The position numbers were made by a program, and so were the translations under genes. Under the pieces are notes generated by a model that saw only the letters and a list, made by a program, of their open reading frames with translations, ran no database searches and had not been told where the DNA came from. From the sequence record OZ035767.1: a stretch of 44,816 bases of DNA. One strand, 5' to 3'. Origin of the DNA: Veterinaerplatzvirus T145P1. Positions 5,674-39,533 of this stretch are shown piece by piece; the stretch's first letter is position 1, and each line of letters begins with the position of its first letter.

Positions 5674-6618
5674 ATGGCCATTAAATTTGATGCAGAACAA
5701 GCAAAAATCACCGCTCACCTCGAGCAAATGGGCGTAGAGAAAGCAGATGCCGCTGGTATCTGGACTGTTAAGCAACTGACCGCCAATCTGGCACGAGCTT
5801 ACGAAAAAGAATATGCAGACAACTCCGTTGTTAATATCTTCCCTGTGACCAATGAAATCCCTGGTCATGCGAAATATTTCGAATATCCAGAATTTGACGG
5901 CGTTGGCATTGCTCAGATTATCGCCGATTACTCTGACGACTTGCCGCTGGTTGATGCGTTTATGACCGAGAAACAGGGTAAAGTGTTCCGCTTTGGTAAC
6001 GCGTTCCTGATCTCCACTGACGAAATCAAAGCAGGTGCGGCAACTGGTCAGCCACTGTCGGCTCGCAAACAGGCTCTGGCATTCGAAGCGCATGATAACC
6101 TGCTGGATAAACTGGTATGGTCAGGCTCTACACCACACGGAATTCCTAGCGTGTTCAATCATCCGAACATCAACAACGTTGTTTCTGGTGGTGCGTGGAG
6201 CTCTGCAGCTGCCGCCATGACTGATATTACCGCACTTATTGATGCAATCGAGACTGCGACTAATGGCACTCACACCGCAACTGATATCTTGCTGCCTGCC
6301 TCCGCTCGCCGCCTGATGCAAGAACTGGTGCCGAATACATCTATCAGCTACGCCCAGCTGTTCGCTACCAATAACTCTGGTATCACTCTGCGTTATCTTC
6401 AGTTCCTGGATAACTACGACGGAGCAGGCGGTAAAGCAGCATTGGCGTTTGAAAAGAATCCTCTCAACCTTTCGATTGAGATCCCGGAAGCGACCAATGT
6501 ACTTCCAGGACAGCCTAAGGATTTGCACATCCGCTACCCTGTTACCTCCAAAGCAACAGGATTGATTTTATATCGCCCTCTGACGGTGGCCGTAATGAAA
6601 GGTATCACCTTCGCGTGA
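5674..6618 (+). CDS. major capsid protein
   Basis: 314 aa; preceded by sigma70-like promoter and followed by strong terminator; position after scaffold. Confidence 0.7.
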   Translation: MAIKFDAEQAKITAHLEQMGVEKADAAGIWTVKQLTANLARAYEKEYADNSVVNIFPVTNEIPGHAKYFEYPEFDGVGIAQIIADYSDDLPLVDAFMTEKQGKVFRFGNAFLISTDEIKAGAATGQPLSARKQALAFEAHDNLLDKLVWSGSTPHGIPSVFNHPNINNVVSGGAWSSAAAAMTDITALIDAIETATNGTHTATDILLPASARRLMQELVPNTSISYAQLFATNNSGITLRYLQFLDNYDGAGGKAALAFEKNPLNLSIEIPEATNVLPGQPKDLHIRYPVTSKATGLILYRPLTVAVMKGITFA

Positions 6619-6622
6619 TAAA

Positions 6623-6646
6623 TCGCCCTCTTCGGAGGGCTTTTTT
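6623..6646 (+). terminator. rho-independent terminator after major capsid gene
   Basis: GCCCTC-TTCG-GAGGGC hairpin then T6. Confidence 0.75.
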
Positions 6647-6709
6647 ACGTCTGTACCAAATGGATTTGTTGGGTTATAATCACTCAATCAGATAACAAAG
6701 GAGACAAAA

Positions 6710-6955
6710 ATGATTCGTTTAGAACACACTGGCGCTTGCCTTATCGTTTACAGGGGTGAGAAATATTTGCCTGGTGACACTTTCGAGGTTGATGCAATTT
6801 GCGACGGACTCAAGCGTTTAATCGCAGAGGGTAAACTCACCATTGAGGGTGACGCCAAAGCAACCAAACAAATCGCGCAAGAAGTTGTTAGCAAGAAAAA
6901 GCGCAGAGAACCGAAAACCATCTCCGAGGCTGAGACTGGTAACGAGTACAAATAA
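6710..6955 (+). CDS. hypothetical head-associated protein
   Basis: 81-aa ORF with RBS AAGGAG between two terminator-like hairpins. Confidence 0.45.
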   Translation: MIRLEHTGACLIVYRGEKYLPGDTFEVDAICDGLKRLIAEGKLTIEGDAKATKQIAQEVVSKKKRREPKTISEAETGNEYK

Positions 6956-20546: not shown

Positions 20547-20594
20547 GTAATAATACAACCGTCAGTGCGGAATGTCTTTAGCTATTCGTGCTAT
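20547..20594 (-). promoter_or_regulatory. conserved palindrome-promoter element, copy 3 (minus strand)
   Basis: Reverse complement reads ATAGCACGAATAGCTAAA ... TATTATTAC ... CATCGAAACGAAAC upstream of the lipoprotein gene. Confidence 0.5.
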
Positions 20595-20692
20595 TGCATA
20601 CACGTAACCGATGTAACTAGATGTATACAATCTCATCCGCGGAAAATGATATACGCACTGTTACGCAAATTTACGCATTGGTTACATTAAAA

Positions 20693-20750
20693 TATCTATA
20701 TATATCAACCTTTTACTCTTATTATTATTATTATATATATTACTGTGTAT
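20693..20750. repeat. AT-rich repeat copy A with (TTA)n microsatellite
   Basis: ATCTATATATATCAACCTTTTACT-(TTA)n-TATATAT..ACTGTGTATA; near-identical to 39261-39326. Confidence 0.8.
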
Positions 20751-20852
20751 ATCATGTAACTACTTCTATAGAGTGTTCCGGTTATAATTTTAATATCATG
20801 TGGATTTATACAGTATTGCGCTGCAGCTATACCAATGCACCCTCAGCAATAA

Positions 20853-26458: not shown

Positions 26459-26476
26459 ATAGCACGAATTGCTAAA
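26459..26476. promoter_or_regulatory. orphan copy of the palindrome (no canonical downstream -10 box)
   Basis: ATAGCACGAATTGCTAAA, 24 nt upstream of the minus-strand tail fibre start codon. Confidence 0.4.
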
Positions 26477-27449: not shown

Positions 27450-27504
27450 AATTACCTCCATAAACAATAAAGGCACTATACATAATGCAAAGTGCCATTG
27501 TTTA

Positions 27505-27984
27505 TCAAATCGTGCTGTTTTGCTCTTTCTTCTTTTGGTTCTCTAATTTTATCTTGCGCCATGAACGACACTCTGGCTTAGTGGCTAATTCAGCCTCAGT
27601 GACGACTCGCAGCATATGGCGCTTTTTGCACCGAAGTGTCAGCGGTTTCCCGTTGCCGTCGAATTGCAGGTCTGGTCGGCAGAATGTAGCGCGAAAACCT
27701 TCTCCATTTCGCTTATAGTAGTTGTGAGAAAGTTGAGCCCCACGCGCAGAAATCATACCGCGCTTAAACCATTCTTCTACAGCCTGTGGTGTTACCTTTA
27801 ACTGCTTTGCGATATTCGCCTTTGTGCCGAAGAAATCAAGAACTATCTCTAGCCGCGCGCGTAGCCCGGCTCTTACTTCATCTTTTAAAACATAGTAGCC
27901 TGAAGGTCGTTTACGTTGCTTTTTGTCTTCGGTGCGGATGGTTCCGTTATTGCCGTTAATTGTTCGCTTGTCGACTGTATTCAT
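27505..27984 (-). CDS. HTH DNA-binding protein, putative transcriptional regulator
   Basis: 159 aa, basic; HTH-like segment TKANIAKQLKVTPQAVEEWF; divergent from helicase promoter element. Confidence 0.5.
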   Translation of the reverse strand: MNTVDKRTINGNNGTIRTEDKKQRKRPSGYYVLKDEVRAGLRARLEIVLDFFGTKANIAKQLKVTPQAVEEWFKRGMISARGAQLSHNYYKRNGEGFRATFCRPDLQFDGNGKPLTLRCKKRHMLRVVTEAELATKPECRSWRKIKLENQKKKEQNSTI

Positions 27985-28085: not shown

Positions 28086-30080
28086 ATGTTGCCTATCGAG
28101 AAGCTGGTTGCAAATTTCGATAAAGAAAGAATCAAACAGATTCAGAAAGACTATCAGTTTGGAGAGATAACCCCTTACGAATTCCAGTGCGTGACATTTG
28201 ATGCAATCGGAAAGGCTATTGGCAAGTACGAGGCACCATTTATCGCAGACCTTTCAGTATCTGCGGGTAAGACAATCATTCTTGCCATGATTGGTAAGCG
28301 CATGGAGCAGCTTGGGCTTCCCTATATGGTTCTCTCTCGCCAGTCAGAGATTATCAGCCAGAACTCAGAAGAGCTTCGTAATTTCGGCATACGTAATAGC
28401 GTCTATTGCGCTGGCCTTAACGTCAAATCAGTTTACTACCCAACTATAGTGGCCAGCGAGGGTACGGCAGCCAACGGCTTGTTTAAGGGGCTTGGTGACT
28501 ATGTTCCGGCAGTTATCGCTATAGATGAGTGTCACATGGTCGATCACATGGATATCGTGGAGGCTGAAGAGAATGAAGAAACATTTGAGCAAATGAGCAC
28601 AAAGAAAGGCGATATGGTTTTTAAGGATGGCGTAAACACAGGATTGCTTGGTACTGGTCGTGCGCAGTACACGCTAATTATCACCGAGATGAAACGTCGT
28701 TGTCGTGAGAAGTACGGGCGTGAGCTTCGTATATTCGGTCTTACTGGCAGCCCGTATCGTAACAACGATCATATCGTCGTTAGCAACCCAAACATCCGTG
28801 GATTCTGGCGCAAAACAGTGATTCAGGTGCCAACAAATTATCTGGTTGATTTGGGCTTCGTTGTTCCTACTGTTTATGGTGAAGTTGGTGACCTGGGTTA
28901 TGACCTTAGTGAGTTTGCGCCAGACGGAAGCGATGGCGTTAAAGACTTCAGCAAGAAAGAAATGGATGCAATGGCTGCAAAGATTCACGACAACCAATCA
29001 ATGACCCAAAAGATAATGGGTTTTGTTGTGAAAATACTCGAGACTCGTAACGCTGCATTGGTAACATGCGCTGGCAAACTCCATTGTGATGAGGCTGCTG
29101 CGGCACTACCAGATGGATACCCTTACGCCATCATCACAGACTCTACGGGAGAGAGGAAGCGCAGGGAGATTCTGGCTGATTGCCAGACAGGTAAGTACAA
29201 AATAATATTCCAGATTGGTTGTCTTACTACGGGCGTAAACCAGCCGCTGTGGGATACTAGCGTCATACTACGCAAGATTGGCAGCCTAACGCTTATGATT
29301 CAGCTTCTTGGTAGGGGGATGCGCAAACTTAATAGATCTCATATTGATGCTGGTTTTCATAAAGAAGATCACCTTGTGCTGGATTTTGCTGGCGCACTTG
29401 ATGATATGGCTGAGCTTTACTTTGACCCAATTATTGAAGAGATTCAGGCTGAGAAGTTTAAATCCTCAAGAAAAGGTGGCGATGAGGTTCGTCAGTGTCC
29501 GCAATGTGGATATGAAAATTCCCCATTCGCTCGTCGCTGTAGCAATAAGATTGATGGCGTTAGATGCGATCACTTCTTTCAGTTCACAATTTGCGAAGAC
29601 ATTACCGACGCGCAAACTAAATCGGTAATTAAAAAGGGTTGTGGCGCTCGCAATGACATAGCAGCAAAGGTTTGCAGGGAATGCGGCGAGATGCTTAAAG
29701 ACCCAAATGCTAACCTGACTGGCAAAATGTATCGTCGTGGTGATTACCTTCGTGTTTATGATTTTCAAGTTGGGTTAAGTAAGAATCAGACAGGCATTGT
29801 AGTTAAGTACAATATAATGGCTCATAACGGAGAGAGATTTAACGCTTGGGAGTTCTTTAATCCAGAATCAGACCATCGAGTTTGCAGTGTGCTCTGGAAG
29901 AACTTTTGCTTAGCTCATATTGAGAATCGCACGGAAGCGGCACGAATTGGCAGGCTTAAAAATGCCAGAATGATTATGACTAACGTAGATAAGTTCCGTG
30001 CGCCAGTTCAGGTTACGCATCGCCGGAATGCAAAAGGAAAGGACGTGATAGCGTTTAAGAATTTTGGAGAATTATTATGA
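28086..30080 (+). CDS. SF2 DNA helicase with C-terminal zinc-ribbon
   Basis: Walker A-like SAGKT, DECH box, QLLGRGMR motif VI, CPQCG...CRECG zinc ribbons. Confidence 0.8.
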   Translation: MLPIEKLVANFDKERIKQIQKDYQFGEITPYEFQCVTFDAIGKAIGKYEAPFIADLSVSAGKTIILAMIGKRMEQLGLPYMVLSRQSEIISQNSEELRNFGIRNSVYCAGLNVKSVYYPTIVASEGTAANGLFKGLGDYVPAVIAIDECHMVDHMDIVEAEENEETFEQMSTKKGDMVFKDGVNTGLLGTGRAQYTLIITEMKRRCREKYGRELRIFGLTGSPYRNNDHIVVSNPNIRGFWRKTVIQVPTNYLVDLGFVVPTVYGEVGDLGYDLSEFAPDGSDGVKDFSKKEMDAMAAKIHDNQSMTQKIMGFVVKILETRNAALVTCAGKLHCDEAAAALPDGYPYAIITDSTGERKRREILADCQTGKYKIIFQIGCLTTGVNQPLWDTSVILRKIGSLTLMIQLLGRGMRKLNRSHIDAGFHKEDHLVLDFAGALDDMAELYFDPIIEEIQAEKFKSSRKGGDEVRQCPQCGYENSPFARRCSNKIDGVRCDHFFQFTICEDITDAQTKSVIKKGCGARNDIAAKVCRECGEMLKDPNANLTGKMYRRGDYLRVYDFQVGLSKNQTGIVVKYNIMAHNGERFNAWEFFNPESDHRVCSVLWKNFCLAHIENRTEAARIGRLKNARMIMTNVDKFRAPVQVTHRRNAKGKDVIAFKNFGELL

Positions 30081-30496
30081 AGATTACAGATAAAGAAGAT
30101 TACATTGAGTTTTACCCGGGTCCGGTTAAGTCATGCCCTAAAGAGGATGACGAACAAATCTTTTGCTCTGATTGGGTTAAGTATAACTACCCAGATATGG
30201 TATTTTTCCATTGCGTGAATGAGGGAAAGAAAACCATTGGTCAAGCAAGAAAAGACCAGGCTAAGGGGCTTCTAAAAGGCGTATCAGACTGTATGTTTCT
30301 TATTCCTGAATCACTTCGAGGTAAGTATCCTTTCGGAGCTATAGAGCTAAAGAGGGCTGGCAAAACTCAAGCAAGTCCAGTCAGCGAAGAACAGAAGGCA
30401 TTCCTGAAAAGTGTAATGGAATCAGGCGGTTTCTCGGCAGTCGCCTACGGACGTGAGGGTTTTCTTGCAGCATTCAAAGAAATGATTTCAAAATAG
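30077..30496 (+). CDS. VRR-NUC domain nuclease
   Basis: 139 aa with PD-(D/E)XK-like D...ELK core; ATGA-coupled to helicase. Confidence 0.6.
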   Translation: MKITDKEDYIEFYPGPVKSCPKEDDEQIFCSDWVKYNYPDMVFFHCVNEGKKTIGQARKDQAKGLLKGVSDCMFLIPESLRGKYPFGAIELKRAGKTQASPVSEEQKAFLKSVMESGGFSAVAYGREGFLAAFKEMISK

Positions 30497-32232: not shown

Positions 32233-32315
32233 CGAGCCTAATACTAGTAGCATCGTTACCACTGTTTAGCTTTACCATCTTATACTTTATCGTAATGAAT
32301 TAAGGAACTTCTATA

Positions 32316-33446
32316 ATGGCAACCGCAAAAATCACCAACGAACAATTGCGCGAAGAGTTAGCAAATGGCATGACCAACAAGGCAATCGCAGAGAAGTACG
32401 GAATGAACATTCGCAACGTTGAATTGCGTCGCAGTAAATTAGCTAAACAAGGCGAAGGGCATGGTCGCGATGTAAGCAACTTAATCCCTCAGGGCTATGC
32501 AGTTAAAGGCGTCTCCAGCTTAATTGGTGCTGATGGCGAGATTAAGCAACAGTGGGTTAAATCAGATATCGACAAGGAGAAGCAAGAAGAGATGATGCTT
32601 CAGGCAATTCAGGCCCTAACTGATGAGTTGCCGCGTGAGAAAGCTAAAGCTTTAAGGGTTGGTTTATGGGAAGATACTTTAAGCCTTTACCCCGTGTTCG
32701 ACCTCCACATTGGAGCAATGGCTCATCATGCTGAGTGTGGTGAGAACTATAGTACTGAAATCGCTGAGAGAGTTCTTAATGATTACTTTGATTACGCGGT
32801 TGCAAAGGCCCCCAACTCCAAGAAAGCTGTATTGCTGATTGGGGGTGACTTCCTTCACTCTGACGGAATGGAAGCGGTAACACCAACCAGTCGTCATGTT
32901 CTTGATCAAGATAGCCGTTATCACAAACTTGTTTACGTAGCAGTGCGATCGACACGTCGAGCAATTAGCCGCATGCTTGATAAGCACGCCGAGGTTGAGG
33001 TTCAGATTATTCCAGGTAACCACGATCTCTCAGGTATGATTTGGCTTCGTGCTGCAATGGCAGCTTTCTATATGGATGAGCCTCGAGTTAATGTTGATGC
33101 GTCCCCCGCTGCGCTTCACGTAACGCAATTTGGGAAGACGCTGCTTGGTTACTGCCATGGGCACGAACTCAAAAAGCCTGATACCCGACTATCAGCACTG
33201 GCTCGTGACCATCGCAAAGCATTTGGTGAATCAGAGTATGTTTACACCCATTCAGGCCACTATCACCATCAAACTATTACGGAAGGAAATCTGGGTATTG
33301 ATGAATCACACGGCCAGCTTGGAGCGAAAGATGCGTACAGTGCTAACGGAGGTTATCGCTCTTACCGACAGGCTTCGGTGATAATTTATAGTCCTGAGTT
33401 TGGTGAGATTGGACGATTTACTTGCCGCCCGGAAATGTTTAGTTAA
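32316..33446 (+). CDS. calcineurin-like metallophosphoesterase with N-terminal HTH-like domain
   Basis: GDFLHSD, GNHD, GH motifs characteristic of metallophosphatases; N-terminal segment resembles sigma-70 region-4-type HTH. Confidence 0.6.
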   Translation: MATAKITNEQLREELANGMTNKAIAEKYGMNIRNVELRRSKLAKQGEGHGRDVSNLIPQGYAVKGVSSLIGADGEIKQQWVKSDIDKEKQEEMMLQAIQALTDELPREKAKALRVGLWEDTLSLYPVFDLHIGAMAHHAECGENYSTEIAERVLNDYFDYAVAKAPNSKKAVLLIGGDFLHSDGMEAVTPTSRHVLDQDSRYHKLVYVAVRSTRRAISRMLDKHAEVEVQIIPGNHDLSGMIWLRAAMAAFYMDEPRVNVDASPAALHVTQFGKTLLGYCHGHELKKPDTRLSALARDHRKAFGESEYVYTHSGHYHHQTITEGNLGIDESHGQLGAKDAYSANGGYRSYRQASVIIYSPEFGEIGRFTCRPEMFS

Positions 33447-33491
33447 TAGCACTTTTTGCCTAACGCATGCCGTAGAAATGCGGCATAATTA
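33446..33491 (+). promoter_or_regulatory. conserved palindrome-promoter element (variant)
   Basis: ATAGCACTTTTTGCCTAA - 22 nt - CATAATTACCACATCGAAACGAGA. Confidence 0.55.
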
Positions 33492-33530
33492 CCACATCGA
33501 AACGAGATGAACTAAACGAGGAAACACAAA

Positions 33531-33707
33531 ATGACTAAAATGATTTATTGCACCAAAAACAACTCCAAAACGCTGCCATTTACAGTTAACCAGCCGTACA
33601 ATGCAGAGTACCAGGGTGATGGATATTACAAGATTTACGGTGACGATATGACGTGGATTTTAGCGCCGATTGAAGGTTCACTGGTTGAATTTATTATCGC
33701 TGACTAG
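33531..33707 (+). CDS. hypothetical small protein
   Basis: 58-aa ORF after promoter-like element and RBS GAGGAA; followed by terminator. Confidence 0.4.
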   Translation: MTKMIYCTKNNSKTLPFTVNQPYNAEYQGDGYYKIYGDDMTWILAPIEGSLVEFIIAD

Positions 33708-33732: not shown

Positions 33733-33761
33733 CGGGGGGCCTTTTGGCTCCCCTTTTTTAT
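33733..33761 (+). terminator. rho-independent terminator before lysis cassette
   Basis: GGGGGGCC-TTTT-GGCTCCCC then T6. Confidence 0.7.
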
Positions 33762-36931: not shown

Positions 36932-37117
36932 TACTTCTCTCCGTGTTGTTTCTGAGCGGCCATTATAACAACGACCGCTTATAAAGCATTATCAATTTGT
37001 GCTATTAATTGTTCTTAATCCACTTTAGACACATCCACAATCCAGCCCCATAGAATGCAATCTTGAGAACTTCAGCTAAGACAAGGATAATAAAGTATCC
37101 ACCACCAAGTAAATCAA

Positions 37118-37746: not shown

Positions 37747-37790
37747 TAACTATACATTGAAAGCCCCGAAGGGCTTTAGCAATTAGTGCT
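37747..37790 (-). promoter_or_regulatory. conserved palindrome-promoter element (minus strand)
   Basis: Reverse complement: AGCACTAATTGCTAAA - 22 nt containing a GC hairpin - TATAGTTA, then CGAAACGAAACGAAAC leader. Confidence 0.6.
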
Positions 37791-37937
37791 GTTTCGTGCT
37801 TTCTCTATCGCCTTGAGCATAATCTCGTGACTTTCCAGTAAGTCCTCTCGGAACCAATCTCCACAAGGCCAGCCTTTTCCGCTATAGGCACTTATGACCT
37901 CGAGATCGAAATAATTTATCTCAGATGGTAATAGCAT
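37776..37937 (-). CDS. hypothetical small protein
   Basis: 53-aa ORF, ATGA-coupled; stop codon lies inside the palindromic element. Confidence 0.35.
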   Translation of the reverse strand: MLLPSEINYFDLEVISAYSGKGWPCGDWFREDLLESHEIMLKAIEKARNSTNC

Positions 37938-38926: not shown

Positions 38927-38973
38927 TAAGTATACGCATAGTTAGCCACACTGTCTTTAGCAAAAAGTGCTAT
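38927..38973 (-). promoter_or_regulatory. conserved palindrome-promoter element (minus strand)
   Basis: Reverse complement: ATAGCACTTTTTGCTAAA - about 23 nt - TATACTTA. Confidence 0.5.
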
Positions 38974-39075: not shown

Positions 39076-39260
39076 AAAGTGAAATTAAGTGGTGAGTGAG
39101 TGAATGAAAGATGGATGGACTACCATACAAGTTGATTTTTACCAATCTATGGGAGCCTCACGGATATACGCGTATCCTCCGTATACTCAGTGTCGTCACA
39201 AAAGTTAGTGACCACTAACCTACGTTTTTACGCGATATATACACACGATATACAATATAA

Positions 39261-39326
39261 TATCTATATATATCAACCTTTTACTTTATTATTATTATTA
39301 TTATTATATATATGTATACTGTGTAT
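39261..39326. repeat. AT-rich repeat copy B with longer (TTA)n microsatellite
   Basis: Same unit as 20693-20750 with about two extra TTA triplets. Confidence 0.8.
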
Positions 39327-39533
39327 ACCGGTAATTGGTGAGATTATTGATATGTTCCGCGCAGATATTCTGACACCTGTCAGAAATGGATGGCATTGTA
39401 GGAATAAAAGGCACATATATAGGGAATGGCTTCAAAAATCTGTACACATCGGATACGGCACATTTACAACCAGCAATGGAGGGGCCTCTGGAGGCAAGAA
39501 GCGTATCCATGATAAAATAGACGAAAATATACA

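Follow-up and report, generated by a model that had tools for sequence, protein, structure and literature searches.

The gene at positions 32316 to 33446 of Veterinaerplatzvirus T145P1 (OZ035767.1) encodes a protein that belongs to the calcineurin-like metallophosphoesterase superfamily, an assignment decided by its motifs and its fold. Within this superfamily the sequence places it in the family of T1 gp16 and PHROG 704, in which a helix-turn-helix (HTH) domain precedes the metallophosphoesterase (MPE) core. It is probable, if only just, that the protein acts as a stand-alone, Rad50-independent, metal-dependent DNA nuclease which is tethered by its HTH, belongs to the replication/recombination module of the phage and possibly contributes to host-DNA breakdown and nucleotide salvage. 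The window (the whole stretch of DNA that was analysed, 44,816 nucleotides) stems from a T1-like siphophage of the family Drexlerviridae, subfamily Braunvirinae.

The open reading frame had been predicted with exact coordinates. According to the ORF list and direct reading, it starts with an ATG at position 32316 and ends with a stop codon at 33444-33446. Minus-strand ORFs within the gene (e.g. 32679..33023) found no support. The gene, its parts and the neighbouring signals are as follows:

32302..32307, + strand: Shine-Dalgarno sequence AAGGAA, 8 nt upstream of the ATG (direct sequence reading)
32316..33446, + strand: coding sequence of the HTH-metallophosphoesterase, 376 aa (ORF list, PHROG 704 match, synteny with JeanPiccard, TLS and T1)
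32316..32450, + strand: predicted N-terminal HTH, aa 1-45, helices 8-16, 21-28 and 32-44, LuxR/NarL/sigma-region-4 type
32451..32495, + strand: linker, aa 46-60, of low confidence, with pLDDT <50 at 51-54 (AlphaFold2 profile, low sequence conservation)
32496..32624, + strand: conserved beta-hairpin (aa 61-70 and 76-85) and helix 87-103 (AlphaFold2, pLDDT ~90, and conservation)
32667..33443, + strand: MPE core, aa 118-376
32700-32708, + strand: MPE motif I, D129-x-H131
32844-32864, + strand: MPE motif II, G177-D-F-L-H181
33015-33026, + strand: MPE motif III, G234-N-H-D
33156-33164, + strand: MPE motif IV, H281
33255-33269, + strand: MPE motif V, G314-H-x-H317
33734..33753, + strand: intrinsic-terminator-like hairpin GGGGGGCC-TTTT-GGCTCCCC followed by T6 (consensus scan)

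All five signature motifs of the calcineurin-like phosphoesterases are present in the core (D129-L-H131, G177-D178, G234-N-H-D237, H281 and G314-H-Y-H317), the last two reading HGH at 281-283 and GHYHH at 314-318. The strings GDFLHSD (177-183) and GNHD (234-237), on which the original prediction had relied, were recovered, and motif I, which it had not listed, has to be added. In an alignment with 133 cluster representatives, all but one of which are 29-40% identical to the protein, the residues D129, H131, D178, N235, H236, H281 and H317 are invariant, while H315 and H181 (the histidine of GDxxH) are nearly so. Since the ligand residues did not change in 133 distant relatives, the motifs are conserved and not a product of chance. 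The generic Metallophos model of Pfam (PF00149 clan) scored 20.9 bits (E=5e-4) against a gathering cut-off of 21.5, a shortfall of 0.6 bit that reflects how far the family has diverged rather than a missing signal. The AlphaFold2 model calculated from the family alignment (mean pLDDT 93.5, pTM 0.82) has the beta-sandwich MPE fold from residue 118 to the C-terminus, and the HTH forms as well, as had been anticipated for both parts of the protein. With its full set of metal-ligand and catalytic residues, the active site is predicted to be competent.

For the N-terminus, a sigma-factor region-4-type HTH within the first 45 or so residues had been proposed on the basis of the string MTNKAIAEKYGMNIRNVELRRSKL (residues 19-42). 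This proposal held: a three-helix HTH fold of the LuxR/GerE - sigma-70 region 4 class was found in the model, and homologous N-termini match HTH families of Pfam. The N-terminal fragment of the protein itself reached 18.0 bits with GerE (cut-off 23.5, E=0.0022), and the whole protein reached 13.8 and 11.7 bits with the GerE and Sigma70_r4_2 models, both under the Pfam cut-offs. Among 115 homologous N-termini compared to Pfam, matches were obtained to HTH_1 (40), HTH_8 (30), Sigma70_r4_2 (18) and GerE (14), with best E-values of 6e-11 for Sigma70_r4_2 and 1.5e-9 for GerE. The family profile, searched against all PDB sequences, also aligns to GerE (E=0.01). The comparisons support the HTH fold class, not a curated GerE or Sigma70_r4_2 membership of the sequence. 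In contrast to the LuxR/NarL/GerE domains and sigma-70 region 4, the HTH lies N-terminal to an enzyme and not behind a receiver or ligand domain.

The HTH was kept in every relative examined (~140 sequences). It opens the homologues of Tlsvirus, Jerseyvirus and Kagunavirus as well as those of a Yersinia, a Vibrio and a Rhizobium phage; in the homologue of a Flavobacterium phage the N-terminus is too divergent for an HTH assignment. Among close relatives, the mean identity of the HTH (66%) is slightly lower than that of the core (72%), and two segments drift, the linker (51%) and residues 106-117 (22%). The latter are the least conserved part of the protein, followed by aa 46-60. This linker is presumably a flexible tether, as judged from the model. 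Between the linker and the core lie the beta-hairpin, whose residues G74 and W80 are near-invariant in the alignments of relatives, and the helix; together they form a family-specific module that precedes the catalytic core.

The fusion of a DNA-binding domain to a phosphatase or nuclease had been called unusual. This view could not be upheld. In the sequences compared, an HTH joined to an MPE is what members of the family regularly possess, and this gene is no exception. PHROG 704, named 'DNA repair exonuclease', matched with E=6e-149, residues 4-375 covering profile positions 2-389 of 390. Relatives were detected by tblastn in 2048 of 50,697 phage records, and a HMMER search of 1.84 billion cluster representatives (50%-identity clusters) yielded 4682 clusters at E<=1e-3 and 1003 at <=1e-30, the matches being mostly 370-400 aa long. 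In Drexlerviridae the gene persists in 508 of 522 phages (PMC13164509). Escherichia phage JeanPiccard (Bas02) shows 99.8% identity across 32316-33446 and has the gene as bas02_0047, labelled 'hypothetical protein', and T1 gp16 (YP_003929.1) is 63% identical over 377 aa, including the HTH. These two genes and TLS gp66 are orthologs with a shared gene order, and nothing of substance sets the protein apart from T1 gp16, TLS gp66 and PHROG 704. Some depositors labelled relatives 'winged helix-turn-helix domain-containing protein', 'metallophosphoesterase' or 'DNA repair exonuclease', and public annotation already covers the gene, the family and the combination of its two domains. The name 'DNA repair exonuclease' is an annotation by similarity alone. 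In the literature searched, no functional study or experiment on the T1 gp16/PHROG 704 family was found. The gene is therefore an ordinary, widespread phage core gene, and the finding in its original form changes little. On the other hand, few non-structural genes persist in T1-like phages, which are widely used in phage collections and as phage-therapy candidates, and this is one of them; its thousands of relatives occur in phages of both virulent and temperate lifestyle.

A plus-strand unit that opens with a helicase gene (28086..30080) and a VRR-NUC gene (30077..30496) and continues with several small ORFs has the gene as its last large member. The gene thus closes the helicase operon and lies apart from the small early genes, which occupy the genome ends. 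On its 3' side follows a small SH3/DUF7244 gene (33531..33707) and then the hairpin, which in the consensus scan is strong, lies 5' of the holin gene and probably terminates the transcription unit of the MPE gene. In T1, a rho-independent terminator is annotated directly after gene 16, and in T1 and TLS the locus likewise lies between the helicase operon and the holin-endolysin-spanin lysis cassette. Because the putative terminator parts the gene from the holin, it would belong to the replication/recombination module and not to the lysis cassette; membership in the latter, which was considered, is disfavoured by the strong terminator, in agreement with the T1 annotation. The phage further encodes a RecE-like exonuclease, Erf, SSB, a primase and two helicases. 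No DNA polymerase gene was detected in the 44.8-kb window, and no Rad50/SbcC-like ORF there or in the JeanPiccard annotation.

In other phages the surroundings vary. In Guernseyvirinae the gene lies in an island among tail genes, accompanied either by a homing endonuclease and Roi or by genes of pnk-like, second-MPE and kinase type, and in a Rhizobium and a Vibrio phage it is placed after the lysis genes. Among 185,579 species genomes scanned, 20 loci were detected, most of them on large contigs, and the five chosen for spot annotation have prophage genes of the usual kinds, varying from locus to locus (terminase, spanin, head-tail adaptor, replication helicase, methyltransferase, dNMP phosphatase). 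When the neighbours of 17 prophage loci were clustered, no ORF cluster was common to more than four loci. Downstream neighbours in other phages encode a polynucleotide kinase, a dNMP kinase or a dNMP phosphatase. Hence, there is no fixed partner, although genes of nucleotide metabolism recur loosely.

Which branch of the superfamily the enzyme resembles was deduced from structural and profile comparisons. The solved structures nearest to the model are nuclease-type MPEs, namely PolD DP1, SbcD and Mre11. In the search of all PDB sequences with the family profile, the only MPE matches were Mre11/SbcD of T. maritima (E 0.04-0.19) and the nuclease PdeM (0.66), and the alignment to Mre11/SbcD runs through motifs I-II ('DlHlG...GDflH' versus 'DWHLG...GDLLH'). 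A search of the PDB with the single sequence gave no match. The profile E-values are marginal, and the affinity to nucleases suggested by them is a lean, not proof. With Mre11/SbcD (3qg5/4o24 of T. maritima, 7dog of S. aureus, 6s6v of E. coli) the protein shares a nuclease-type MPE domain, whereas it ends with the MPE core where these proteins have a capping domain, does not have their Rad50/SbcC partner and possesses instead the N-terminal HTH and the hairpin-helix module. Among the NCBIfam and Pfam models, no SbcD or Mre11 model matched at E<=10, and the PdeM model scored 19.7 bits (cut-off 150). Lacking the capping domain, Rad50/SbcC and a curated-model match, the protein was not assigned to the Mre11/SbcD family. 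The archaeal PolD subunit DP1 (5ihe), a Mre11-like proofreading exonuclease, is 13% identical to the protein. It has an OB-fold, whereas the core of the phage protein is preceded only by the two-stranded hairpin and one helix, and it has DP2 as partner, while the phage encodes neither DP2 nor a polymerase. Membership in the DP1/polymerase B-subunit family was rejected on account of the missing OB fold and polymerase partner. Even though the protein stands outside these families, it may work like the Mre11/SbcD/DP1 nucleases.

A third family, the mycobacteriophage MPEs represented by Bxb1 gp47 and A10ZJ24 gp48, shares with the protein the feature of a phage MPE encoded in a replication gene block. 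It was ruled out because Bxb1 gp47 falls into phrog_221 and not 704, and because hhalign gave a probability of 8.8% over 86 columns that cover motifs III-V only. Moreover, motif I of Bxb1 gp47 and A10ZJ24 gp48 is located at residue 10, which leaves no N-terminal HTH. The A10ZJ24 gp48 MPE combines phosphodiesterase and DNase activity: in vitro it breaks down linear, plasmid and genomic DNA, in vivo that of the host, and the replication of the phage DNA in M. tuberculosis needs gp48 (PMC12287305). As gp48 is a relative only at the level of the superfamily, it provides an analogy, not evidence by orthology.

The proposed nuclease would work as follows. A two-metal phosphodiesterase of the nuclease-type (Mre11/SbcD/DP1) branch, acting without a Rad50/SbcC ATPase, would be held on duplex DNA by the LuxR/sigma-4-type HTH on its flexible linker of ~15 residues. 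The catalytic core, behind the family-specific beta-hairpin and helix, would cut or resect this DNA. The operon with the helicase and VRR-NUC genes, part of the replication-recombination module, would be the source of the protein, whose likeliest jobs would be the processing of DNA ends and of replication or recombination intermediates and/or the breakdown of host DNA for reuse of the nucleotides. The analysis showed the fold, the invariant ligand set, the type of the HTH, the architecture of the family, the absence of a partner and the position in the operon; that the substrate is DNA, that the HTH tethers and what the biological role is are inferred. A part in breaking down host DNA and salvaging its nucleotides is suggested by the recurrence of pnk, dNMP-kinase and dNMP-phosphatase neighbours and by the precedent of A10ZJ24 gp48. 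Speaking against the nuclease reading, the HTH could instead make protein-protein contacts or be regulatory. Among the functions offered at the outset, an action on DNA ends fits best, in view of the Mre11/SbcD/DP1 folds and the profile matches, while an action on host signalling nucleotides or as a regulated phosphatase during host takeover gained no positive support.

A far-reaching version of the nuclease reading, which we consider rather doubtful, is that the T1 gp16 family constitutes an unrecognised class of Rad50-independent Mre11-like nucleases which are targeted by the HTH, destroy the host chromosome and feed salvage in T1-like phages. Roberts and Drexler reportedly described in 1981 T1 mutants that are defective in host-DNA degradation and show a raised transduction frequency. 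As a variant, a DP1-like exonuclease could be recruited to the borrowed host replisome. If the protein is indeed an HTH-tethered nuclease without a partner, it would be a simple model for an MPE nuclease fold working without Rad50, and it could account for how Drexlerviridae break down host DNA, recycle nucleotides and behave in transduction.

Alternatively, the protein might be a small-molecule phosphodiesterase that acts on cyclic or linear nucleotides, signalling oligonucleotides or Ap4A-type compounds and thereby blunts nucleotide-based immunity of the host or reshapes nucleotide pools, with the HTH being accessory or regulatory. The fold scores would allow such an enzyme, yet we regard this as unlikely. 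An HTH that occurs in every relative examined has no obvious use in such an enzyme, and the family profile matches nuclease MPEs only. The PADLOC defence and anti-defence models gave no match to the protein, and the 'anti-phage phosphoesterase' model of NCBIfam stayed at 12.5 bits (E=0.046), its cut-off being 420. Furthermore, the phage enzymes Acb1 and Apyc1, which degrade signalling nucleotides, have other folds.

Somewhat less probable still is an end-healing phosphoesterase that removes 2',3'-cyclic or 3'-phosphates from RNA or DNA and partners a phage polynucleotide kinase, similar to the MPE module of bacterial Pnkp. This idea is suggested solely by the adjacency of genes in some phages: a pnk-type 3'-phosphatase/5'-kinase gene and a dNMP kinase gene come directly after it in Yersinia phage 636, in Kagunavirus XY1 and in Drexlerviridae without the SH3 gene (PMC13164509). 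In the window, by contrast, no pnk gene adjoins, and the pnk gene of T1 lies ~36 kb away.

Equally improbable is that the protein is mainly a DNA-binding regulator or architectural factor which uses the MPE fold as a scaffold or sensor. Bxb1 gp47, which we take to be itself a recombination directionality factor (RDF), would be the model for this; its record is labelled metallophosphoesterase, and the RDF label stands on the neighbouring gp46. A LuxR/sigma-4-type HTH is typical of transcription factors, there are weak matches to the 'late transcriptional activator' phrog_836 (E=0.05) and to FixJ/UhpA-type regulators, and the 19 promoter-like elements of the window, which contain a dyad at about -42, need a reader. 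However, the invariant catalytic residues point to an enzyme, and no such element was found upstream of the MPE gene. The HTH of the MPE is also an unlikely reader of this Drexlerviridae element, since Jerseyvirus S102 has a near-identical HTH without possessing the element and since a separate Cro-like regulator is encoded by the phage. Lastly, it is very improbable that the protein reprograms host proteins as a lambda-PPase-like Ser/Thr/Tyr phosphatase, for although the superfamily is shared and phages do carry lambda-PPase-type enzymes, motifs and fold disfavour this reading, as neither GDxxDRG and GNHE nor the PPP fold was found.

The promoter-like element reads ATAGCAC-N3-TTGCTAAA, followed after about 20 nt by a TATAGT-like -10 box and a CATCGAAACGA leader. 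Its dyad, TAGCA-N5-TGCTA, has its centre close to -42, a position bound by class II activators. By chance, 1.9 copies would be expected in the window. Nearly all of the copies found are intergenic, and 18 of them face the next gene, the exception being the one at 26459. In S102 the element was matched once (1.2 expected), and the phage has repeats of its own which differ from it, while in TLS nine copies were counted in 17 kb.

A promoter-like element of about 62 nt occurs 19 times in the window, compared to 1.9 copies expected by chance. The copies were located as follows:

Starts at 2116, 9293, 22881, 26459, 27997, 30493 and 31534, plus strand: promoter-like element
Starts at 33446, 40242, 40539, 41549, 42076, 42586 and 43453, plus strand: promoter-like element
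20577-20594, 27501-27518, 36988-37005, 37775-37792 and 38956-38973, minus strand: promoter-like element

The element opens with ATAGCAC-N3-TTGCTAAA, which includes the dyad TAGCA-N5-TGCTA. After about 20 nt comes a TATAGT-like -10 sequence, then CATCGAAACGA as leader, and an ATG follows 30-45 nt beyond. TTGCTA and the -10 sequence are 22 nt apart, a spacing too long for a sigma-70 -35 box. The dyad is centred near -42, which suggests that the copies are activator-dependent promoters. Candidates for the reader of the element are the phage's Cro-like regulator (27505..27984) and a host protein.

One copy of the element bears on the surroundings of the metallophosphoesterase gene, in whose neighbourhood two domain proteins were identified:

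33531-33707, plus strand: SH3/DUF7244 gene, 58 aa (Pfam, E=2.6e-29)
30077-30496, plus strand: VRR-NUC domain protein (Pfam, E=6.9e-8)

The SH3/DUF7244 gene possesses its own promoter-like element (33446-33507), which begins at the metallophosphoesterase stop codon, and is separated from the holin gene by a strong terminator (33734-33753). The SH3 protein has recently been proposed to be a component of the lysis module (PMC13164509), a proposal with which a separate promoter-like element and a terminator ahead of the holin sit uneasily. On the other side, the VRR-NUC gene shares its first 4 nt with the end of the helicase gene (28086..30080), stop codon included. By its domain, the VRR-NUC protein is a second nuclease sharing the operon with the metallophosphoesterase, and the helicase carries zinc-ribbon motifs at its C-terminal end.

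An AT-rich segment is present in two copies (20683-20758 and 39251-39334), which are 94% identical over 35 nt; a (TTA)n/TATATA run comes directly after each of them. The copy at 20683-20758 is located in a divergent intergenic region. The two segments may be early promoters or resemble origins.

Two database records call for comment. The contig NZ_VSMK01000220.1 of a Nitratidesulfovibrio liaohensis assembly carries a gene whose product shares 96% identity with the window's metallophosphoesterase; with 46,669 bp it is as long as an entire Drexlerviridae genome and is almost certainly a contaminant of coliphage type rather than Desulfovibrio DNA. In the RefSeq record of mycobacteriophage Bxb1, gp46 is named recombination directionality factor, gp45 'sigma-K factor' and gp49 'phosphofructokinase'. 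The recombination directionality factor of Bxb1 is the phosphoesterase-like gp47. Several product names look shifted or odd, and the annotation of this record should be used with caution:

6021-6788, minus strand: Bxb1 region with odd product naming (RefSeq record)

The promoter-like element also occurs in phage TLS, where 17 kb of sequence contain 9 copies, and is absent from the Jerseyvirus S102, a Salmonella phage. The latter has a repeated element of its own, which is unrelated to that of the Drexlerviridae:

6435, 28175, 31751, 34540 and 38055: S102 repeated element

It reads AATATAATAG(A/T)GT(A/T)CTATTA with an internal palindrome, TAATAG/CTATTA. Read on the opposite strand, the copies take the form of TTGACA...TATTATATT promoters with an operator-like dyad.
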